Source: a virus
Length of the DNA: 64,000 nucleotides
Direction: 5' to 3' (one strand)
IMG/VR virus record: IMGVR_UViG_3300025652_000032
Span: 1 to 64,000 of that record
Below, piece after piece: positions 3,291 to 58,306 of this stretch (its first letter is position 1; every line of letters starts with the position of its first letter). The notes beneath the pieces were generated by a model. That model was not told the origin of the DNA. It did no database searches and worked only from the letters and a program-made list of their open reading frames with translations. The position numbers and the translations under genes were made by a program.

Positions 3291-3296
3291 AAAAAC

Positions 3297-3327
3297 GGGG
3301 GAGTGCTTGACACTCCCCTATTTTTTT
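3297..3327 (+). terminator. Intrinsic terminator
   Basis: GGGGAGTG-CTTGA-CACTCCCC stem-loop followed by A-T7, directly after stop at 3290. Confidence 0.85.
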
Positions 3328-3335
3328 GCTATGAT
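3307..3335 (+). promoter_or_regulatory. sigma70-type early promoter
   Basis: TTGACA-17 nt-TATGAT with TG extended -10; the -35 lies in the terminator loop. Confidence 0.8.
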
Positions 3336-3362
3336 ATAACCAACTCACACCGGAGACTGTAG

Positions 3363-10133: not shown

Positions 10134-10822
10134 TGGGCGCAGTAGACGCATTCATCGCATACAAGTTTATCAAGATCTTAAGCACACCTTTTGATCAGAC
10201 TGATGCATATAAACTTGGAATCATCAATGCCGATGGTAAAGTTCTCAAGAAGAGAAAAGATCTTCAGGGAACCAATGAGAAAAAGGCGTATACAATTTTC
10301 CACCAAATTGGTTGGAACCTCAAGAGAATCCTAAACAAGATTCCCGGAACCAAGAGTAGATTTGGTTCCTTTGCTGCTGCTTTGTTTTTGCTGAAAGAAG
10401 AGGCAGAAGGTAAGTATACCGATTGGAATCTTGTAGAACAATATATCCTAGAGTATGCACAAGAAGAAGGTCTGCTGTTAACTGAAGACGTACCAGCAAA
10501 CAACGCTGGTTCTGGACAGGTTGCAGGACTCGGTGACGAACCTCCTGTGAAGAAGGGTATGACTGGGGACGTTCAGAGAAGAAACCAAGTCAAGGAAGGT
10601 TATGAATCCTTCGCTGGTGCGAGAGTGTTTGATGTTACCGAAGACGAGTACATGAAATGCAACTATGGAAGAACTAAACACGAAAGATGGAATCGCAAAC
10701 TCAAGATGGAAGATGTGGGTCGAGAAGACATCAAAAAGTTCGCCCATCGAAACCCTTCCAAGTCAGTAATTGTTAGAAACGAGAAAACTGGGGAGATGCA
10801 GTATCTACTCCGCAGGAGGTGA
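10133..10822 (+). CDS. Conserved hypothetical protein of T4-like phages (probably virion)
   Basis: AYKFIKILSTPF..TDAYKLGII..DG N-terminal block; E-delimited C-terminal modules. Confidence 0.7.
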   Translation: MGAVDAFIAYKFIKILSTPFDQTDAYKLGIINADGKVLKKRKDLQGTNEKKAYTIFHQIGWNLKRILNKIPGTKSRFGSFAAALFLLKEEAEGKYTDWNLVEQYILEYAQEEGLLLTEDVPANNAGSGQVAGLGDEPPVKKGMTGDVQRRNQVKEGYESFAGARVFDVTEDEYMKCNYGRTKHERWNRKLKMEDVGREDIKKFAHRNPSKSVIVRNEKTGEMQYLLRRR

Positions 10823-10824
10823 AA

Positions 10825-11679
10825 ATGAAAAGGTTACTCTTATTGTCATGTCTTTTAATCGGATGTGAAACTACACCAGAACCATCAGCGTCGAGTACGA
10901 TCACTCACGCGATAGAAGTTCAGGAAGAAACAACAGAACAAATAAACGAATCCTCTACTATAATTGAGGAGAGTAGTGATACCATTCGTAGAGATGCGGA
11001 TGGTATCCTTGATATCACGGCGTTTGGAGAACGAACACCGGAGATCGAACGCATCGAAGACAGGGCGCACAACATAATCGATGAAACTAACGTCATCGAA
11101 AATGAAACAATAAAGACAAAAGAGGCATTAGAAGACCTAAATCGTGCAAATGAATTAATTCGACAAAGTGGCGCCAAAGTGGCACAACTGGAAAAAGAAG
11201 TTGCAGAGTTAAACAAAGAAGATGCCGCTTTACGACGCGAGGCGATCGAGAACTTTTATGGTACGATTACCCTGTTCTATGTGATAGGGTTCGCCGGACT
11301 CATTCTTGGTATCTTCATGGTTTCATACAGCAAGAAACTCGGCGGTACGCTTATCCTTGCAGGACTTCTGATTCTTGGTTTTGCTACTGCTTCCGTGTAT
11401 TACCTAGAAGAGATTGCAGCAGTAGGATTCTGGATCACCATAGCAGGAATCATAACTGCTGTTGGTACTCTGATCTATCTTATCCTTCGAGCAAAGACGG
11501 AAAGAAAGACAAACGATCAAGTGGTGGAGTTAGTCGAGGTAATCAAAGAAAAGATGCCACAGGACGTTCGAAACGAAATGTTCTCAAAAGGTGGTGTGGC
11601 ATACACAATCACCGATGCGTCCACCAAGAAAATAATAAACGAAGTTAAAGTTCGGAATGGATTTAAGCATACCCGTTGA
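10825..11679 (+). CDS. Lipoprotein with long coiled coil and C-terminal transmembrane helices (u-spanin-like topology)
   Basis: Lipobox LLIGC, heptad-rich middle, three hydrophobic segments; GGAGG RBS. Confidence 0.6.
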   Translation: MKRLLLLSCLLIGCETTPEPSASSTITHAIEVQEETTEQINESSTIIEESSDTIRRDADGILDITAFGERTPEIERIEDRAHNIIDETNVIENETIKTKEALEDLNRANELIRQSGAKVAQLEKEVAELNKEDAALRREAIENFYGTITLFYVIGFAGLILGIFMVSYSKKLGGTLILAGLLILGFATASVYYLEEIAAVGFWITIAGIITAVGTLIYLILRAKTERKTNDQVVELVEVIKEKMPQDVRNEMFSKGGVAYTITDASTKKIINEVKVRNGFKHTR

Positions 11680-12244
11680 TCTTTCCGTGTAGCATCTTAC
11701 AGATGTAATAGGCGTCCACGATATCCGATACCGGGTTCTGGACGCCTGTTTTCTTAGGTGTCATGATCTTACACAGATCCTTTCCCGTCTCTTTTACGAA
11801 CGCATCGAACATGAGATCCTTGGATGCATTACCTTTATCAGTTGCGAACTTCTTTACTTCAGTTGGTGCTACAACCTCAAGTGGCGTGGCAGACTGGAAT
11901 AACTTGTACTTCAGAACTCCCACGTTCTCTGCTAACTGGAATACTCTACCAGTTGCATTGAAGGCATATCCTTCGAGTGCTACTTGATCACATCCCACGA
12001 TACAGTCAATTGCCCAGTCTGATATGCTATCGTAACGTCCGGAGTCTGGACATAAGTTGACGGGTGATCCAATTGACTTGAATCGCTCACCCTTTATGTT
12101 CTTGAGAAATGATTTTGCATATTTCTCGGTGTCTGTGAGATAGAAGAACAAACAATGCTCAAACTTGAACTTAGCAGATGATGGTTTGGAAAAAACGCAT
12201 ACTGCTGGTGATGTTAAACTGTAATCGATTCCTGCAATGGCCAT
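11663..12244 (-). CDS. RuvC-like (RNase H fold) nuclease, putative Holliday junction resolvase
   Basis: AGIDYS, VALEGY, DIVDA match the RuvC D/E/D/D catalytic layout. Confidence 0.7.
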   Translation of the reverse strand: MAIAGIDYSLTSPAVCVFSKPSSAKFKFEHCLFFYLTDTEKYAKSFLKNIKGERFKSIGSPVNLCPDSGRYDSISDWAIDCIVGCDQVALEGYAFNATGRVFQLAENVGVLKYKLFQSATPLEVVAPTEVKKFATDKGNASKDLMFDAFVKETGKDLCKIMTPKKTGVQNPVSDIVDAYYICKMLHGKINGYA

Positions 12245-12281
12245 AAAAAACCTCCCGTATAAAGAGTATTTATACGAGAGG
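12245..12281 (-). promoter_or_regulatory. 13-bp hairpin plus U6 (terminator/RBS-sequestering) containing late promoter TATAAATA
   Basis: Minus-strand CCUCUCGUAUAAA-UACUC-UUUAUACGGGAGG-UUUUUU-AUG; TATAAATA at 12274-12267. Confidence 0.8.
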
Positions 12282-12312
12282 TCTTAGGTTGTGTACAGGT
12301 TACTTCGTTAAA

Positions 12313-13338
12313 TCAGAAACTAATAGTGATACCACTACGGAGAACGAACTGTCCCGAATCGGAACCAGATCGCCATCCAGTGTTTTCTGTGTCGAAGTTA
12401 CTACCGATACCCTCAAGAGCATACCCGGCCGTGTTGGTCCAGACAAGTCCGTGAGCGAGATCGTAGTTACCACCTACGGTGAGAATGTTGAGACTACCAT
12501 CGTAGTCACCAATTTCCCACTGTGCAAATCCTTCGAACTTATCGAAGCACTTATATGCAGCAGTAGTGACTACTGACCAGTTGTCGAGACTACCAGCACC
12601 TGCATCATTAGCAATCCAGTCTGCATCGAGAGTAAGAAGACCCTCGGTGAGTGTACCACCAAAGGTGAAACTGTTCACACCTTCCGTGACAGAATCATAT
12701 GCCCAACCACCGTTGAGTGACACGGAGTCATTCACACGATAATTCGCTGCGACACCGATGGCATACTTGTTGTCTCCAACTCCTACACCAGCAGTATCGA
12801 AACCATTGTTGTAGAAGGCGCTGACTTCGAAGTCACCGAATGATCGGAAGGCCTCAACACCTGCTCCGCGTCCCTGTCCGAAGGTAAGTGCCGTGACACT
12901 ATAGTTCAGGGTTGTGAGTTGAGTTGGATCAGTGACGTATCCAGCATAGAACTGGGGAACGAACTGTCCGACTCGAATGTTTGCTTCTTCGAACATACGA
13001 AGAGTAACGACTGCATCAAGCAGATCGAAACTGTTGGTAGCGTCCGACCATTCACCACTGACGAGGTAAGAGAAACTCTCGTTGCTCGTATCTCCTGAGA
13101 AGGTTAGACGGGCGCGGTCAACCGAAAAACCATTTTGGGCGGGAAGTCCGCCACCGTTGGAATACTCCCAACCAGTTTGAATGAAACCACCGACGTTGAT
13201 GCCGAGATGATTGTCATTGAGTGATGCTCTTGTTGAGGCATCAGCGAGGACAAGACTGAATGCGTCGTTGTCCATATCCTGTCCTACAGCAACTCCGCTG
13301 AAAAGACATGATGTAATAATAGCATTGATCATTTTCAT
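12313..13338 (-). CDS. Outer-membrane beta-barrel porin (OprO/OprP-like)
   Basis: Signal peptide, F.VDRARLTFSG, IRVGQF, alternating beta strands, C-terminal Phe (ITISF). Confidence 0.75.
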   Translation of the reverse strand: MKMINAIITSCLFSGVAVGQDMDNDAFSLVLADASTRASLNDNHLGINVGGFIQTGWEYSNGGGLPAQNGFSVDRARLTFSGDTSNESFSYLVSGEWSDATNSFDLLDAVVTLRMFEEANIRVGQFVPQFYAGYVTDPTQLTTLNYSVTALTFGQGRGAGVEAFRSFGDFEVSAFYNNGFDTAGVGVGDNKYAIGVAANYRVNDSVSLNGGWAYDSVTEGVNSFTFGGTLTEGLLTLDADWIANDAGAGSLDNWSVVTTAAYKCFDKFEGFAQWEIGDYDGSLNILTVGGNYDLAHGLVWTNTAGYALEGIGSNFDTENTGWRSGSDSGQFVLRSGITISF

Positions 13339-13362
13339 AATTTTTCTCCTTTATGTTTTAGA

Positions 13363-15309
13363 TCAGTTTGTTAAATCTACGATTTCACAAGAGTTGCCTG
13401 TACATGCAAATGTTTGTGTTCCAGCGGTCTGATCTTCCTTCTCGTACTCTCCGAGGCCAGACCAATCGATGTTTTCTGGAAGCGTCTTCAATAGTTCATT
13501 GTACTCTTCCTTGGTACAATCCTGATATGGTGCTTGTCTGTATGTGTGATCTGAGAATGGAAGGAATGAAACTCCTGACATCTCGTTGAAGTGATCGTAT
13601 ACCCATGCACCAACTTCCATCCATTCGTCTTCCTTAACGGAAACCGTGATAGAAGGTTTGTGTTCACACCAATGTCTCTGGTATGTCAACCAAAGTTCAA
13701 GTTGTTCGATGGCAGTCAGATCCGTTCTACAAATCGCCTTATCAGGTGACTTCTGTGGGAACGAGAAAACCATCGTGTGTTCTGGTTTCATTACATCTGG
13801 TTCACATGGGAAACCCTTTTCCTTCATGAACACACACAGAGGATCCTTGATATCCGCACGGACAGTGCGAACGTAATAAGGATTGTGTCGAGCATGAATA
13901 CCAGATGCAGCATCAACCAACTGTGAAACTGTTCCACTTGGTTTCACGCAAGTGATAGCAGCAGATTGGTTGATGTGTAGTTTCTTTGCCCATGTCTTGT
14001 TGACATCAACAGAATGGGACTTGAGATCTTCTAGGGTTCCTGCAAGTTTACCGTTGGTAGAACCATTGAGTAATGCGTTGTCCATGATACCCGTGAGAGA
14101 AACACCAAGAAGTCTTTCTTCTTCGCAGTTCTTCGTCCACTCACTAGACAGGTACTTAAAGTTCAGAAGGGTAGACTGCCATGTTCCGAGGATCGTTGCA
14201 AGACGAACCTTTTCCTTGAGAGTCTTTATTGTGTCATCAGCACGAACGACAACTTCTGTTAGATTACAGAACTCACGATCACGCAAGATGATTTCGCTGC
14301 ATGGGTTGGTTCCGAAGTTGTAGTTTGGATCTCGGCGTTCGTCAACAATCTTCTTTACCTGATCCTGACACGCAGCACGACTAAACATACCTCTCTCGCC
14401 ACTCTTTGACTTATAGAGAGACAACCACTCTTCCATGAACGTACCAATTTCGGGTGTACTCTTATATGCAACGGAGTTGTTTGCAAGGGCCCGTTGTGCG
14501 TTGTGTTCCCACCACTGTCCAGTCTTTGCATCTCTCATTCGTTCATCAGTAAGTGAAGACAATGAGATAAGAGCAGATCGACGGACACCACCGACTACAA
14601 CAATTTCAGCAATCTTGCAGATGATATCGTGGCACTCGACGGTAGTGAGTTTTCTGCCTGCGGCCTTACGGTAAGTCTCTACCGTGAATTGGAAAAGATC
14701 CTCAAGAGGTTGCGGTCCAGATGCTCTGCCGCCGAATGTCTTGAGTCTTGCTCCAGCAGGACGAACTTTACTTGTGTCCCATTGTGGTACTTGACCACCA
14801 ATGAGTAGCGAGGTGAGTTCTTTATAAGACTTTGCCCATCCCATCTTGGAATCACCGACGACAATGACTGTATCACTCGCATCAAATTCCTCTGCAATCG
14901 TTGGAAGTCTGTCTACGACATCACGTTCTACGCTAAAACCCATTCCTGTCCCGCACATGAGAACGTAGAGGATCTCATCGAAGGAACGAGGACGACTCGC
15001 TTCGCAGTATGCACAGTTGTACCCTGCAATATTGTCGCGTCTCAGTGCCTCACCGGCAGTCATCAACGCTCTCATGGAAGGCATGATCTTGAGTTCACGA
15101 ACTGCTTTTTCGAGTTCGTTCCTCTGATCTTTCGTTACCTTGAAATTACATTCTTCCTTGAGATGAGTCTCAAAGAAATCAAAATATCTGGCAACTGTTT
15201 CGGGCCAGGTCTCTCTGCGTCCTTCTTCTTCCAACCAACGGGAATACCGTGATAGGTGAATAAAAGACTGGTATAGCGTGGGTAATTCATCACACATAAT
15301 AAGTGTCAC
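13363..15309 (-). CDS. nrdJ: Class II (adenosylcobalamin-dependent) ribonucleoside-triphosphate reductase; start may be 15297
   Basis: MPSMRAL, GGVRRSA, TNPCSEI, FCNLTEV, TCVKPSGT, C-terminal CTGNSCE. Confidence 0.9.
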   Translation of the reverse strand: MTLIMCDELPTLYQSFIHLSRYSRWLEEEGRRETWPETVARYFDFFETHLKEECNFKVTKDQRNELEKAVRELKIMPSMRALMTAGEALRRDNIAGYNCAYCEASRPRSFDEILYVLMCGTGMGFSVERDVVDRLPTIAEEFDASDTVIVVGDSKMGWAKSYKELTSLLIGGQVPQWDTSKVRPAGARLKTFGGRASGPQPLEDLFQFTVETYRKAAGRKLTTVECHDIICKIAEIVVVGGVRRSALISLSSLTDERMRDAKTGQWWEHNAQRALANNSVAYKSTPEIGTFMEEWLSLYKSKSGERGMFSRAACQDQVKKIVDERRDPNYNFGTNPCSEIILRDREFCNLTEVVVRADDTIKTLKEKVRLATILGTWQSTLLNFKYLSSEWTKNCEEERLLGVSLTGIMDNALLNGSTNGKLAGTLEDLKSHSVDVNKTWAKKLHINQSAAITCVKPSGTVSQLVDAASGIHARHNPYYVRTVRADIKDPLCVFMKEKGFPCEPDVMKPEHTMVFSFPQKSPDKAICRTDLTAIEQLELWLTYQRHWCEHKPSITVSVKEDEWMEVGAWVYDHFNEMSGVSFLPFSDHTYRQAPYQDCTKEEYNELLKTLPENIDWSGLGEYEKEDQTAGTQTFACTGNSCEIVDLTN

Positions 15310-52885: not shown

Positions 52886-53937
52886 TGTGAAAGTGCCTCC
52901 ATATACACTGAACGAATTAATTCTTTAATCTTACCTGTGTTGACATTTTCAAGTGTGTCAACTTCATTATATATAAGAGTTATTGTGTCTTTCGTCATGT
53001 CAACAACTTCTTCTTCTTCAATTTCTTCCCCATAGTCTTCGACTATGGTCAAGTTCTGTACTTGTGTATCATAGAACTTATCACACAGTTTGTCAAACGT
53101 ATAAGGTTTAGTTTTATTGATAACAAAAATCTTGACATAGGTATTCTTGAAATCATTAAAGTCCATCTTGTTTATGATCTCGTCATAATCGGTCTTTGAA
53201 TCATCATAGTACAAGAAGTGAAATAGTTTGTTTGGGTTCTCAACAAACTCAATTGCTCTTGTTTCTGTATCGAGAACATGAAACCCCTTCTTCTCTTTGA
53301 GATCCGAGAAGGTAATTTGATACTGTGTACCAAGGTAATGAACATTGTTCTGGCTGTGCTTTCCGTGGAAGTGACCAGAGAGAACCATCTCAAATCTTTT
53401 GAGTGGATCATCATCCATTCCCCCATCAAACTTTACACCACGCATCACTTCATAACCATTCAATTCAAAATGACCACCTACGATAGATGCCTTCGTATTC
53501 TTAAGAAACGACAACACATCTTCTCGATTCCTTTTGTTTATCCAAGGAACAAGGGCAATTAATGTGCCGTCGTAATCCACCTCAACAGGCGATTCGTGAA
53601 GGTGGAAATTGTCATACCTGTCACCAAACAATTCTTTCGGTGAATTTAGATCGTTCGTATTCTTAAAGTAAGTATCATGGTTGCCAATAATACAATTGAC
53701 ATTCAATCCATTCTCTCTCATAGGTTCCATGAAGTTTTTGCGAACCTGAGACAGCGTACTGAAGTTAACAAACTTGCGACGATCCATAAGATCACCCAAG
53801 TGAATTACCTCTGTAATATTGTGTTCTTTGCAATACGGAAAAAATATCTCGTCAAAGAACTTGTTTATGTACTCTGCGAAAGTAGTGGAGTCATTGCGAA
53901 CTCCAAAGTGAGTATCATTAATCAACGCAATTTTCAT
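52882..53937 (-). CDS. gp47: Recombination endonuclease nuclease subunit (Mre11/SbcD-like)
   Basis: DTHFG, LGD, GNHD, GHF, SGHFH. Confidence 0.95.
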   Translation of the reverse strand: MKIALINDTHFGVRNDSTTFAEYINKFFDEIFFPYCKEHNITEVIHLGDLMDRRKFVNFSTLSQVRKNFMEPMRENGLNVNCIIGNHDTYFKNTNDLNSPKELFGDRYDNFHLHESPVEVDYDGTLIALVPWINKRNREDVLSFLKNTKASIVGGHFELNGYEVMRGVKFDGGMDDDPLKRFEMVLSGHFHGKHSQNNVHYLGTQYQITFSDLKEKKGFHVLDTETRAIEFVENPNKLFHFLYYDDSKTDYDEIINKMDFNDFKNTYVKIFVINKTKPYTFDKLCDKFYDTQVQNLTIVEDYGEEIEEEEVVDMTKDTITLIYNEVDTLENVNTGKIKELIRSVYMEALSQ

Positions 53938-54455
53938 TCAGACTTTTTCCTTTTAGTCTTCTTCTTTGGTTCGAACTTCACCAAATCATTTTCAGTGATA
54001 TCAAAAATATCCGTATACTTCTTATCTTCATCGAAGTAATTATTCTTGAACCACTTCCTAAACTCGCCGAAGTCATCTGCCTCAATTGTTGCCTTATACT
54101 TGATATAATTCTGCTTCTTCTCTTTCTGAATTCTTCGGAGAAATGCAAAATAGATTATCTGAGTGAAGTATGAGAACGGGTTTGTTGACTTCTCTGGATC
54201 GAAGTTGCTTGCATACATTACACAGTTTTCGATGCCGTCACCAATCATATCATCCTTAAAAGGATAATTGATAAAGTTTGGTTTGTATGAAAGGTGTTCT
54301 GCGATCTTCAAAAAACACTCACCCACATAGTCGGGGATGACTGGTTTCGGTTCGCCAGCATCTTCTGCTGCCTTGATCTCTTCTTTCCATTCACACATCA
54401 CACCGAAAAATTCTTTGTTGTCGATGTAATGGTTTGCTTTTTTCTTCTTTGCCAT
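53934..54455 (-). CDS. gp55: Late-transcription sigma factor
   Basis: HYIDNK.F, IAEHLSYKPNFINY, DMI.DGIENC, NPFSYFTQI...FLRRI.KEKKQ. Confidence 0.95.
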   Translation of the reverse strand: MAKKKKANHYIDNKEFFGVMCEWKEEIKAAEDAGEPKPVIPDYVGECFLKIAEHLSYKPNFINYPFKDDMIGDGIENCVMYASNFDPEKSTNPFSYFTQIIYFAFLRRIQKEKKQNYIKYKATIEADDFGEFRKWFKNNYFDEDKKYTDIFDITENDLVKFEPKKKTKRKKSE

Positions 54456-58223: not shown

Positions 58224-58241
58224 AAGAAATCTCCTCTACAC

Positions 58242-58249
58242 TATTTATA
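58242..58249 (-). promoter_or_regulatory. Late promoter for gp3
   Basis: TATAAATA then GAGGAG RBS. Confidence 0.8.
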
Positions 58250-58253
58250 CAAT

Positions 58254-58284
58254 AAAAAAGGGGAGAGTCACTAGGACTCTCCCC
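58254..58284 (-). terminator. Intrinsic terminator after gp23
   Basis: GGGGAGAGTC-CTAGT-GACTCTCCCC followed by T6. Confidence 0.9.
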
Positions 58285-58306
58285 TGATTTACGTTTTACT
58301 TACCGA

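Follow-up and report, generated by a model that had tools for sequence, protein, structure and literature searches.

The resolvase gene studied here lies in the genome of an uncultured marine T4-like phage; the window, the whole stretch of 64,000 nucleotides that was analysed, is half of a 128,029-base IMG/VR virus record with a completeness of 71%. On the minus strand a sigma-70-type promoter, the only perfect sigma-70 site in 9 kb, is followed by nrdJ, the first gene of the early operon, then by a porin-like gene and finally by ruvC, the last gene of this leftward block (Table 1). With ruvC downstream of the early unit and on the same strand, a long read-through RNA that reaches the resolvase gene is expected to exist. 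At its 3' end ruvC shares 17 nt (window 11663-11679) with the 3' end of a convergent gene on the plus strand (10819-11679), so that a terminator has no place between these two late units. The porin-like protein (Porin_O_P match) is phage-encoded and shares one operon with nrdJ; the 3' part of its gene is about 61-62% identical in contigs L051 and L052, otherwise close relatives of the window, so the gene appears to be fast-evolving or exchanged. A resolvase gene beside ribonucleotide reductase genes is also found in Mosig, DLP6 and RSP15 (nrdB-x-ruvC) and in T4 (pin-49-nrdD), the corresponding order in the window being nrdJ-porin-ruvC (11663-15309).

Table 1. Features of the resolvase locus and of related sites, in window coordinates unless another sequence is named
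Feature	Position	Strand	Evidence or remark
Sigma-70-type early promoter, TTGACA-16 nt-TATAAT with TG extension	15369-15342	minus	12/12 consensus matches
nrdJ, class II (B12-dependent) ribonucleotide reductase	13363-15309	minus	phrog_367, 5.9e-190; TIGR02505 RTPR, 5.3e-91
Porin-like gene, OprO/P family	12313-13338	minus	PF07396, 3.7e-06, above curated cut-off; stop codon TGA at 12315-12313
Spacer, porin stop to hairpin	12282-12312	minus	approximately neutral rate of change in relatives
5' arm CCTCTCGTATAAA	12281-12269	minus	sequence; anti-SD CCUCUC, then GUAUAAA
TATAAATA, T4-type (gp55) late promoter box	12274-12267	minus	six 5'-arm bases and two loop bases
Loop UACUC (DNA TACTC)	12268-12264	minus	C12266 is G in three relatives
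3' arm TTTATACGGGAGG (UUUAUACGGGAGG)	12263-12251	minus	contains the Shine-Dalgarno sequence
Putative late transcript start	12259-12262	minus	placed by T4 late promoter geometry (PMC2988020), about 6 nt past the box
Shine-Dalgarno sequence GGGAGG	12256-12251	minus	wholly within the 3' arm
U6 (TTTTTT)	12250-12245	minus	terminator tail and SD-to-AUG spacer; U7 in L051
Resolvase start codon ATG	12244-12242	minus	read from sequence
RuvC-like Holliday junction resolvase, 193 aa	11663-12244	minus	phrog_159, 9e-32
gp55-type late sigma factor	53934-54455	minus	T4 gp55 match, 2.8e-19; phrog_234, 1.6e-60
Variant-box sites (examples)	window 59832, 20244, 9269, 1264; record 66881, 102711, 114871, 81376		late-promoter-like
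TAAATACCC(C) boxes of Salmonella phage Det7	15995, 140012, 143503, 145739, 129462(-)		tail-spike, tail-fibre and other genes

The region between the porin-like gene and ruvC contains a hairpin (12281-12251, minus strand) with a 13-bp stem that includes one U.G pair and a 5-nt loop; it starts 31 nt past the porin stop codon, has the stem base CCUCUCG/CGGGAGG and runs directly into U6. An earlier note on this DNA had described a 13-bp stem with one G-U pair that buries GGGAGG and is followed by U6 and AUG, and had placed a late promoter in its 5' arm and loop. The minus-strand letters match the first description exactly, and TATAAATA was found where the second put it. By sequence, the element has what an intrinsic terminator calls for, namely a GC-rich stem base, an adjoining U tract and a stop codon upstream. 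It is missing from the output of a consensus terminator scan, likely because a possible extension of the stem to 17 pairs, in which the upstream AAGA pairs with four of the six U, leaves too few tail T for the rule of that tool. An Rfam search returned no family, and blastn of the locus against cultured phages returned no match. Two other terminators in the window also adjoin promoter elements: the one at 3291-3362 on the plus strand (GGGGGAGTG-CTTGACA-CTCCCC and a T run; hairpin at 3297-3319) contains in its loop TTGACA, the -35 element of the promoter that comes next, whose TATGAT stands 17 nt further on, a sigma-70-type terminator/promoter overlap, and the one behind the major head gene (GGGGAGAGTC..GACTCTCCCC and T6, 58285-58259 minus, region 58224-58306) is followed after 4 nt by a TATAAATA box (58249-58242) and then by the tail-tube gene, an arrangement that is tandem and not nested.

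RNAfold gives the 39-nt element a free energy of -19.2 kcal/mol (z = -7.0, with 0 of 200 shuffles equally stable), and the same hairpin dominates in an 88-nt context (z = -5.2); the hairpin reported in the earlier note is real and well beyond chance. A scan of the whole 128,029-base record places it within the top three for stability among perfect hairpins, the other strong ones being intergenic terminators of the same stability class. When the genes with a recognisable SD were folded in a context of -60 to +30, the SD of ruvC ranked first of 98 in pairing probability, and ruvC is the sole gene in the window's genome with such a hairpin design. GGGAGG is fully paired in the folded long RNA, and RNA begun at 12261 or 12264 reaches only -7.3 kcal/mol (z about +0.4) and leaves most of the SD unpaired. 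RNA folding, which had been suggested as a check of the hairpin, thus came out in its favour, with the SD buried in the long RNA and open in an RNA that starts about 6 nt past the box.

The genome encodes a gp55-type late sigma factor (Table 1), and T4-type genes for head, tail tube, scaffold and protease are present in the record, as are UvsX, gp41, gp61 and gp47. Dinucleotide shuffles of the window hold 1.85 +/- 1.34 copies of the box TATAAATA, compared with six in the window itself, and the whole record has nine, where 6/9 sites lie 16-43 nt upstream of an SD and a start codon; the genes behind these six are those for the scaffold, the tail tube, PAAR, an exonuclease, an unknown gene and ruvC. 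For the relaxed motif xATAAATA, 13/28 sites are found at most 60 nt upstream of an SD and a start, the major head gene included, against 0-1 of 4-9 sites for control 8-mers. The variants CATAAATA, GATAAATA and ACTAAATA stand 4-43 nt before an SD and start codon, that of the major head gene and those of others. From about 13 sites, the working late promoter consensus of this phage would be xATAAATA / xxTAAATA. The distance from the box to the ATG of ruvC is 22 nt, compared with 16-43 nt for the other boxes of the genome, and the box before ruvC is a credible gp55 promoter at a typical distance. At T4 late promoters, transcription starts about one helical turn past a TATA box of 8 bp (PMC2988020), and a T4-type start at this distance from the present box would put the late 5' end near 12261, in the 3' arm. 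A gp33 homologue was not found in the 71%-complete record with a small, divergent Det7 protein as the query. A sigma-70 reading of the box (TGTACA-17-TATAAA) was rejected; it is without the invariant last T of the -10 element and is unlisted by the promoter scan.

The product of ruvC is predicted to be a junction resolvase of RuvC fold. An AlphaFold2 model of the 193-aa protein (pLDDT 87.7, pTM 0.88) has as its best Foldseek matches the RuvC structures 4ep4, 7xhj and 1hjr (E = 7e-09 to 9e-07); the top RuvC sources are T. thermophilus, D. radiodurans, P. aeruginosa and E. coli, with TM up to 0.75 on the target, and poxvirus, yeast mitochondrial (Ydc2) and chloroplast resolvases come next. Residues D7, E91, D174 and D177 do not vary across 26 aligned relatives (33-94% identity) and follow one another as expected for the acidic tetrad of RuvC (D, E, D/H, D). 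The curated bacterial RuvC model NF000711 matches weakly (E = 0.0099, far below cut-off), which assigns the protein to a phage RuvC-like family and not to bacterial RuvC proper. A PDB sequence search with the resolvase found nothing. No similarity to T4 endonuclease VII was detected (BLASTP E = 48), and a T4 gp49 homologue was not found in the record (71% complete). The earlier suggestion of a RuvC-like resolvase that is not homologous to gp49 is in line with both the Foldseek and the BLASTP results, and the predicted RuvC fold is unrelated to T4 gp49.

The element is kept in nine related contigs whose resolvases show 94-99% protein identity. At 4-fold degenerate sites of RuvC the divergence of the relatives from the window is 0.20-0.33, which under neutrality would mean about 8-13 changes in 40 nt; the 40-nt element holds none in L048, one (in the loop) in L049 and L001, none apart from one extra U in L051, and three in L052. 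The adjacent spacer differs at 6/33 positions in L049, and in L052 a stretch of 8 nt is deleted from it. This pattern shows purifying selection on the 40-nt element. The stem of L052 has U.G changed to C-G and the neighbouring C-G changed to C.A, which makes the SD AGGAGG; one change strengthens the stem, the other weakens it and also improves the SD, and the hairpin still reaches -17.9 kcal/mol (z = -5.4). Strict double-sided compensatory changes were not found within the window's own lineage. The conservation pattern fits both a switch and an overlapping terminator, promoter and SD, and it does not separate the two. Only relatives whose protein is at least 94% identical share the design of the window's lineage, those at 58% or less being arranged otherwise. 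A protein search brought up further resolvase relatives at 85%, 64% and 61% identity, and a related-loci search seeded with the 85% and 64% relatives brought up other arrangements but did not enlarge the hairpin lineage. A scan of viral contigs for the apical half GTATAAATA..TTTATAC, aimed at covariation in the lower stem, returned, among the matches listed, one known relative, the rest being unrelated AT-rich palindromes.

Similar hairpins precede RuvC-like genes in other phages. In the hypersaline contigs L106 and L107 (37-38% identity), (G/A)ATAAATA forms the 5' arm of a 13-14-bp hairpin, the 3' arm contains GGAG and AUG stands right behind it (z = -2.8 and -3.5); the two 5' arms differ at two positions, and pairing is kept in both through G.U. 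A promoter/SD hairpin also precedes the RuvC-like genes of Ralstonia RSP15 and Vibrio BX-1, and before the RuvC-like gene of contig L275 stands a 13-bp hairpin whose loop contains TATATAAAA. In five Ackermannviridae genera the leader of the RuvC-like gene reads TAAATACCCATAAC...GTTATGGGTATTT-ATG, with compensatory events in phiMAM1 (A-U to G-C) and Ag3 (a G:C pair inserted in both arms), which were read from individual folds, MAFFT having misaligned the Ag3 leader. The promoter-plus-SD hairpins of L106, L107 and the Ackermannviridae are without a U tract. Two RuvC lineages, L260 and L266, have a plain terminator and then a promoter before the gene, and in L005, L006, L036 and L053 ruvC lies behind a divergently transcribed gene and has no hairpin; the missing hairpin where the neighbour diverges fits a device that is needed only against read-through.

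Other arrangements upstream of ruvC were also seen. In L012, L017, L019/L061, L020, L060, L063 and L064 (57-58% identity), xTAAATA ends 6-9 nt before the ruvC ATG, and these boxes would give a leaderless or near-leaderless late mRNA. Strong, heavily covarying terminator stems lie about 45 nt upstream of ruvC in L031, L079, L081 and L084-L093; they always end in CTATATATTT(G/A)TA, followed by AUG without a Shine-Dalgarno sequence. TAtaTTTG resembles the -7 promoter box of Bacteroidota, and these relatives may infect Bacteroidota. In Vibrio phage K474 (1150-1230) the annotated RuvC start at 1219 falls past the catalytic GIDYS motif, and an upstream ATG with a AAAGGTGG SD would restore the full N-terminus; the RuvC start of that record is probably wrong.

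The Ackermannviridae indicate how far such leaders are tied to resolvases. Phage Det7 has seven TAAATACCC sites, against none in a reversed control, and 5/6 of the sites other than that of the RuvC-like gene are followed by a similar hairpin ending at AUG; the genes behind these hairpins include two tail-spike genes and a tail-fibre gene (Table 1). The Det7 hairpins pair AAATACCCC with GGGGTATT directly before AUG. The promoter-plus-hairpin leader can thus be read as a general, family-wide late-gene feature in the Ackermannviridae; a description of this leader design was not found in PMC3184105 or PMC3296691. Since tail-spike and tail-fibre genes of Det7 have the same design, the device appears to be generic for late-only expression and not specific to resolvases. 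The view of the earlier note that the locus points to convergent control of the junction-resolving step is therefore borne out in part: the design does recur before RuvC-like genes elsewhere, but in Det7 it is a generic late-gene device.

We propose that one 40-nt element acts as a terminator of early transcription, as a mask of the ribosome-binding site on read-through RNA and as a late promoter, according to a T4-type logic, and we consider this the probable reading of the locus. Early in infection, host sigma-70 polymerase starting from the promoter upstream of nrdJ would transcribe nrdJ and the porin-like gene, and the hairpin with U6 would terminate most of this RNA 1-6 nt before the resolvase AUG. 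On RNA that reads through, the whole hairpin would pair GGGAGG with CCUCUC and so block the ribosome from starting on ruvC. Late in infection, the gp55-polymerase would recognise TATAAATA and start at about 12261; an RNA without the 5' arm and loop would not be terminated, and its SD would be free 6 nt upstream of AUG. The outcome would be a resolvase that is probably made only late, when branched DNA needs clean-up for packaging. The T4-type switch put forward in the earlier note holds for every feature that can be tested in the sequence (gp55, the boxes, the sigma-70 promoter, the folds of the SD and the RuvC fold), whereas its expression side, that is, termination, the late start site, translational masking and protein timing, is what we infer from them.

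An alternative is that the arrangement reflects compaction only, the hairpin being the terminator of the nrdJ-porin operon that overlaps a promoter and an SD by chance in a tightly packed genome, termination by itself sparing ruvC from early RNA and SD pairing having no regulatory consequence. All features of a terminator are indeed present, with the GC-rich stem base and U6; signals overlap elsewhere in the genome (3297-3319, and 58285-58259 followed by TATAAATA); the L260 and L266 lineages have a plain terminator and then a promoter; and an efficient terminator would leave little for SD masking to do, so that masking could be incidental. However, the 5' arm contains the exact anti-SD CCUCUC and the SD is the best paired of 98 in the genome, and in L052 the 5'-arm U is replaced by C opposite G, the lower stem staying strong while the SD changed. 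The hairpins of L106, L107 and the Ackermannviridae, being without a U tract, are not explicable as terminators and still combine promoter and SD, and intrinsic terminators are rarely complete, so that read-through RNA is expected. On balance we regard compaction alone as unlikely.

Other readings take the inverted repeat as an element of the DNA, either a protein operator or an extrudable cruciform that serves, for example, resolvase autoregulation or late-promoter occlusion, or as a chance palindrome without function. A near-perfect inverted repeat centred on an AT-rich promoter, beside the gene for a junction-cutting enzyme, would suit a DNA element, and T4 I-TevI autorepresses through an operator that overlaps its own late promoter (PMC2988022). 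The G-U pair, a T/G mismatch in DNA, and the C.A of L052 fit RNA pairing better, however, arms of 13 bp are short for stable extrusion, and the Ackermannviridae counterparts vary in sequence yet keep pairing, which disfavours a fixed protein-binding sequence; we hold a DNA-level role to be very improbable. As for a palindrome arisen by chance, the surroundings of TATAAATA are AT-rich and partly self-complementary, and palindromes of the type GTATAAATA..TTTATAC are common in viral contigs, but none of the 200 shuffles was as stable (z = -7.0), the element shows 0-3 changes where 8-13 would be expected under neutrality, beside a fast-evolving spacer, and the placement is exact, with the SD 6 nt from AUG and the box at a typical distance from the start. 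Chance alone is hardly credible here.

The combined terminator, mask and late promoter has well-studied precedents in T4, where the genes e, soc, 49 and I-TevI have a late-promoter/hairpin translational switch (PMC3014915; PMC2988022); the earlier note had named 49, e and soc, correctly according to PMC3014915. Ribosome-binding sites of late genes are also masked by hairpins within early or middle transcripts in I-TevI, I-TevII, I-TevIII and segB of T4 and in mobE of Aeh1 (PMC3014915; PMC2988022), and for gene e a 100-fold effect has been shown experimentally (PMC3014915). The genes e, soc, I-TevI, I-TevII, I-TevIII, segB and Aeh1 mobE share the logic of a long RNA that is untranslatable and a late-promoter RNA that is translatable, a logic that the element in the window, before a different gene, would follow. 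A close parallel is gene 49, whose leader, as reported for Barth et al. (1988) in PMC2988021 and in PMC3014915, forms on the long early RNA an SD-sequestering hairpin that is unable to form in the late RNA; our folding gives -16 kcal/mol for its long form and -2.7 kcal/mol for a late-type truncation. Both loci have a TATAAATA-type box and an SD in the 3' arm just before AUG, both stand at the end of an early unit beside ribonucleotide reductase genes, and in both the product is a junction resolvase needed before packaging, an activity that is predicted for the enzyme in the window. In geometry the two loci differ. T4 gene 49 has its box 5' of the anti-SD arm; before ruvC of the window the anti-SD comes first and the box stands at the apex, so that the late RNA from the putative start would be without the entire 5' arm and loop. 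The hairpin with U6 in the window also differs in looking like a full intrinsic terminator.

This comparison takes the classic device beyond T4, to an uncultured T4-like phage of marine origin and a resolvase whose fold differs, and, taken with the other lineages, suggests that phages with recombination-dependent replication repeatedly evolve strict late-only translation of the junction-cutting enzyme. We put forward only tentatively, as a possibility that we ourselves think rather doubtful, that throughout the T4 superfamily late-promoter/hairpin gating is maintained on junction-resolvase genes of any fold (endonuclease VII in T4, RuvC-like enzymes elsewhere), the slot beside the reductase genes having been non-orthologously replaced and the gating rebuilt or retained each time. 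If that were true, there would be strong selection against early resolvase activity, for instance since the enzyme would then cleave branched intermediates of a replication that depends on recombination. Such leaders may also be of use in annotating uncultured T4-like genomes, where they would help to find late promoters and to pick the true start codon.

Outside T4, the Ackermannviridae (Vi1-like) design is alike in that one arm of its hairpin is the TAAATACCC promoter and the other is a complementary GGGTATTT at the ribosome-binding site, with AUG directly after; RuvC-like genes with this design are found in Det7, KpS110, RC-2014, Ag3 and phiMAM1. It differs in having T4-type geometry without a U-tract terminator, and in being general to late genes, whereas in the window's genome ruvC alone has it. 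The closest geometry found is the RuvC-like leader of Vibrio phage BX-1 (Vapseptimavirus), in which the anti-SD CCCUC comes first, a CTAAATA box stands at the boundary of arm and loop, and GAGGG in the 3' arm is followed by a U-rich tail and AUG (-18.1 kcal/mol, z = -4.3); the BX-1 protein is 32% identical and has an N-terminal extension, and its leader has a 10-bp stem and a longer loop. BX-1 is cultured, as are Ralstonia RSP15 and Kuttervirus, so that the proposal is testable in these phages. The element before ruvC is thus a new example of a known device and not a new mechanism, and what sets it apart is the compact geometry in which terminator, promoter and mask of the ribosome-binding site are combined.
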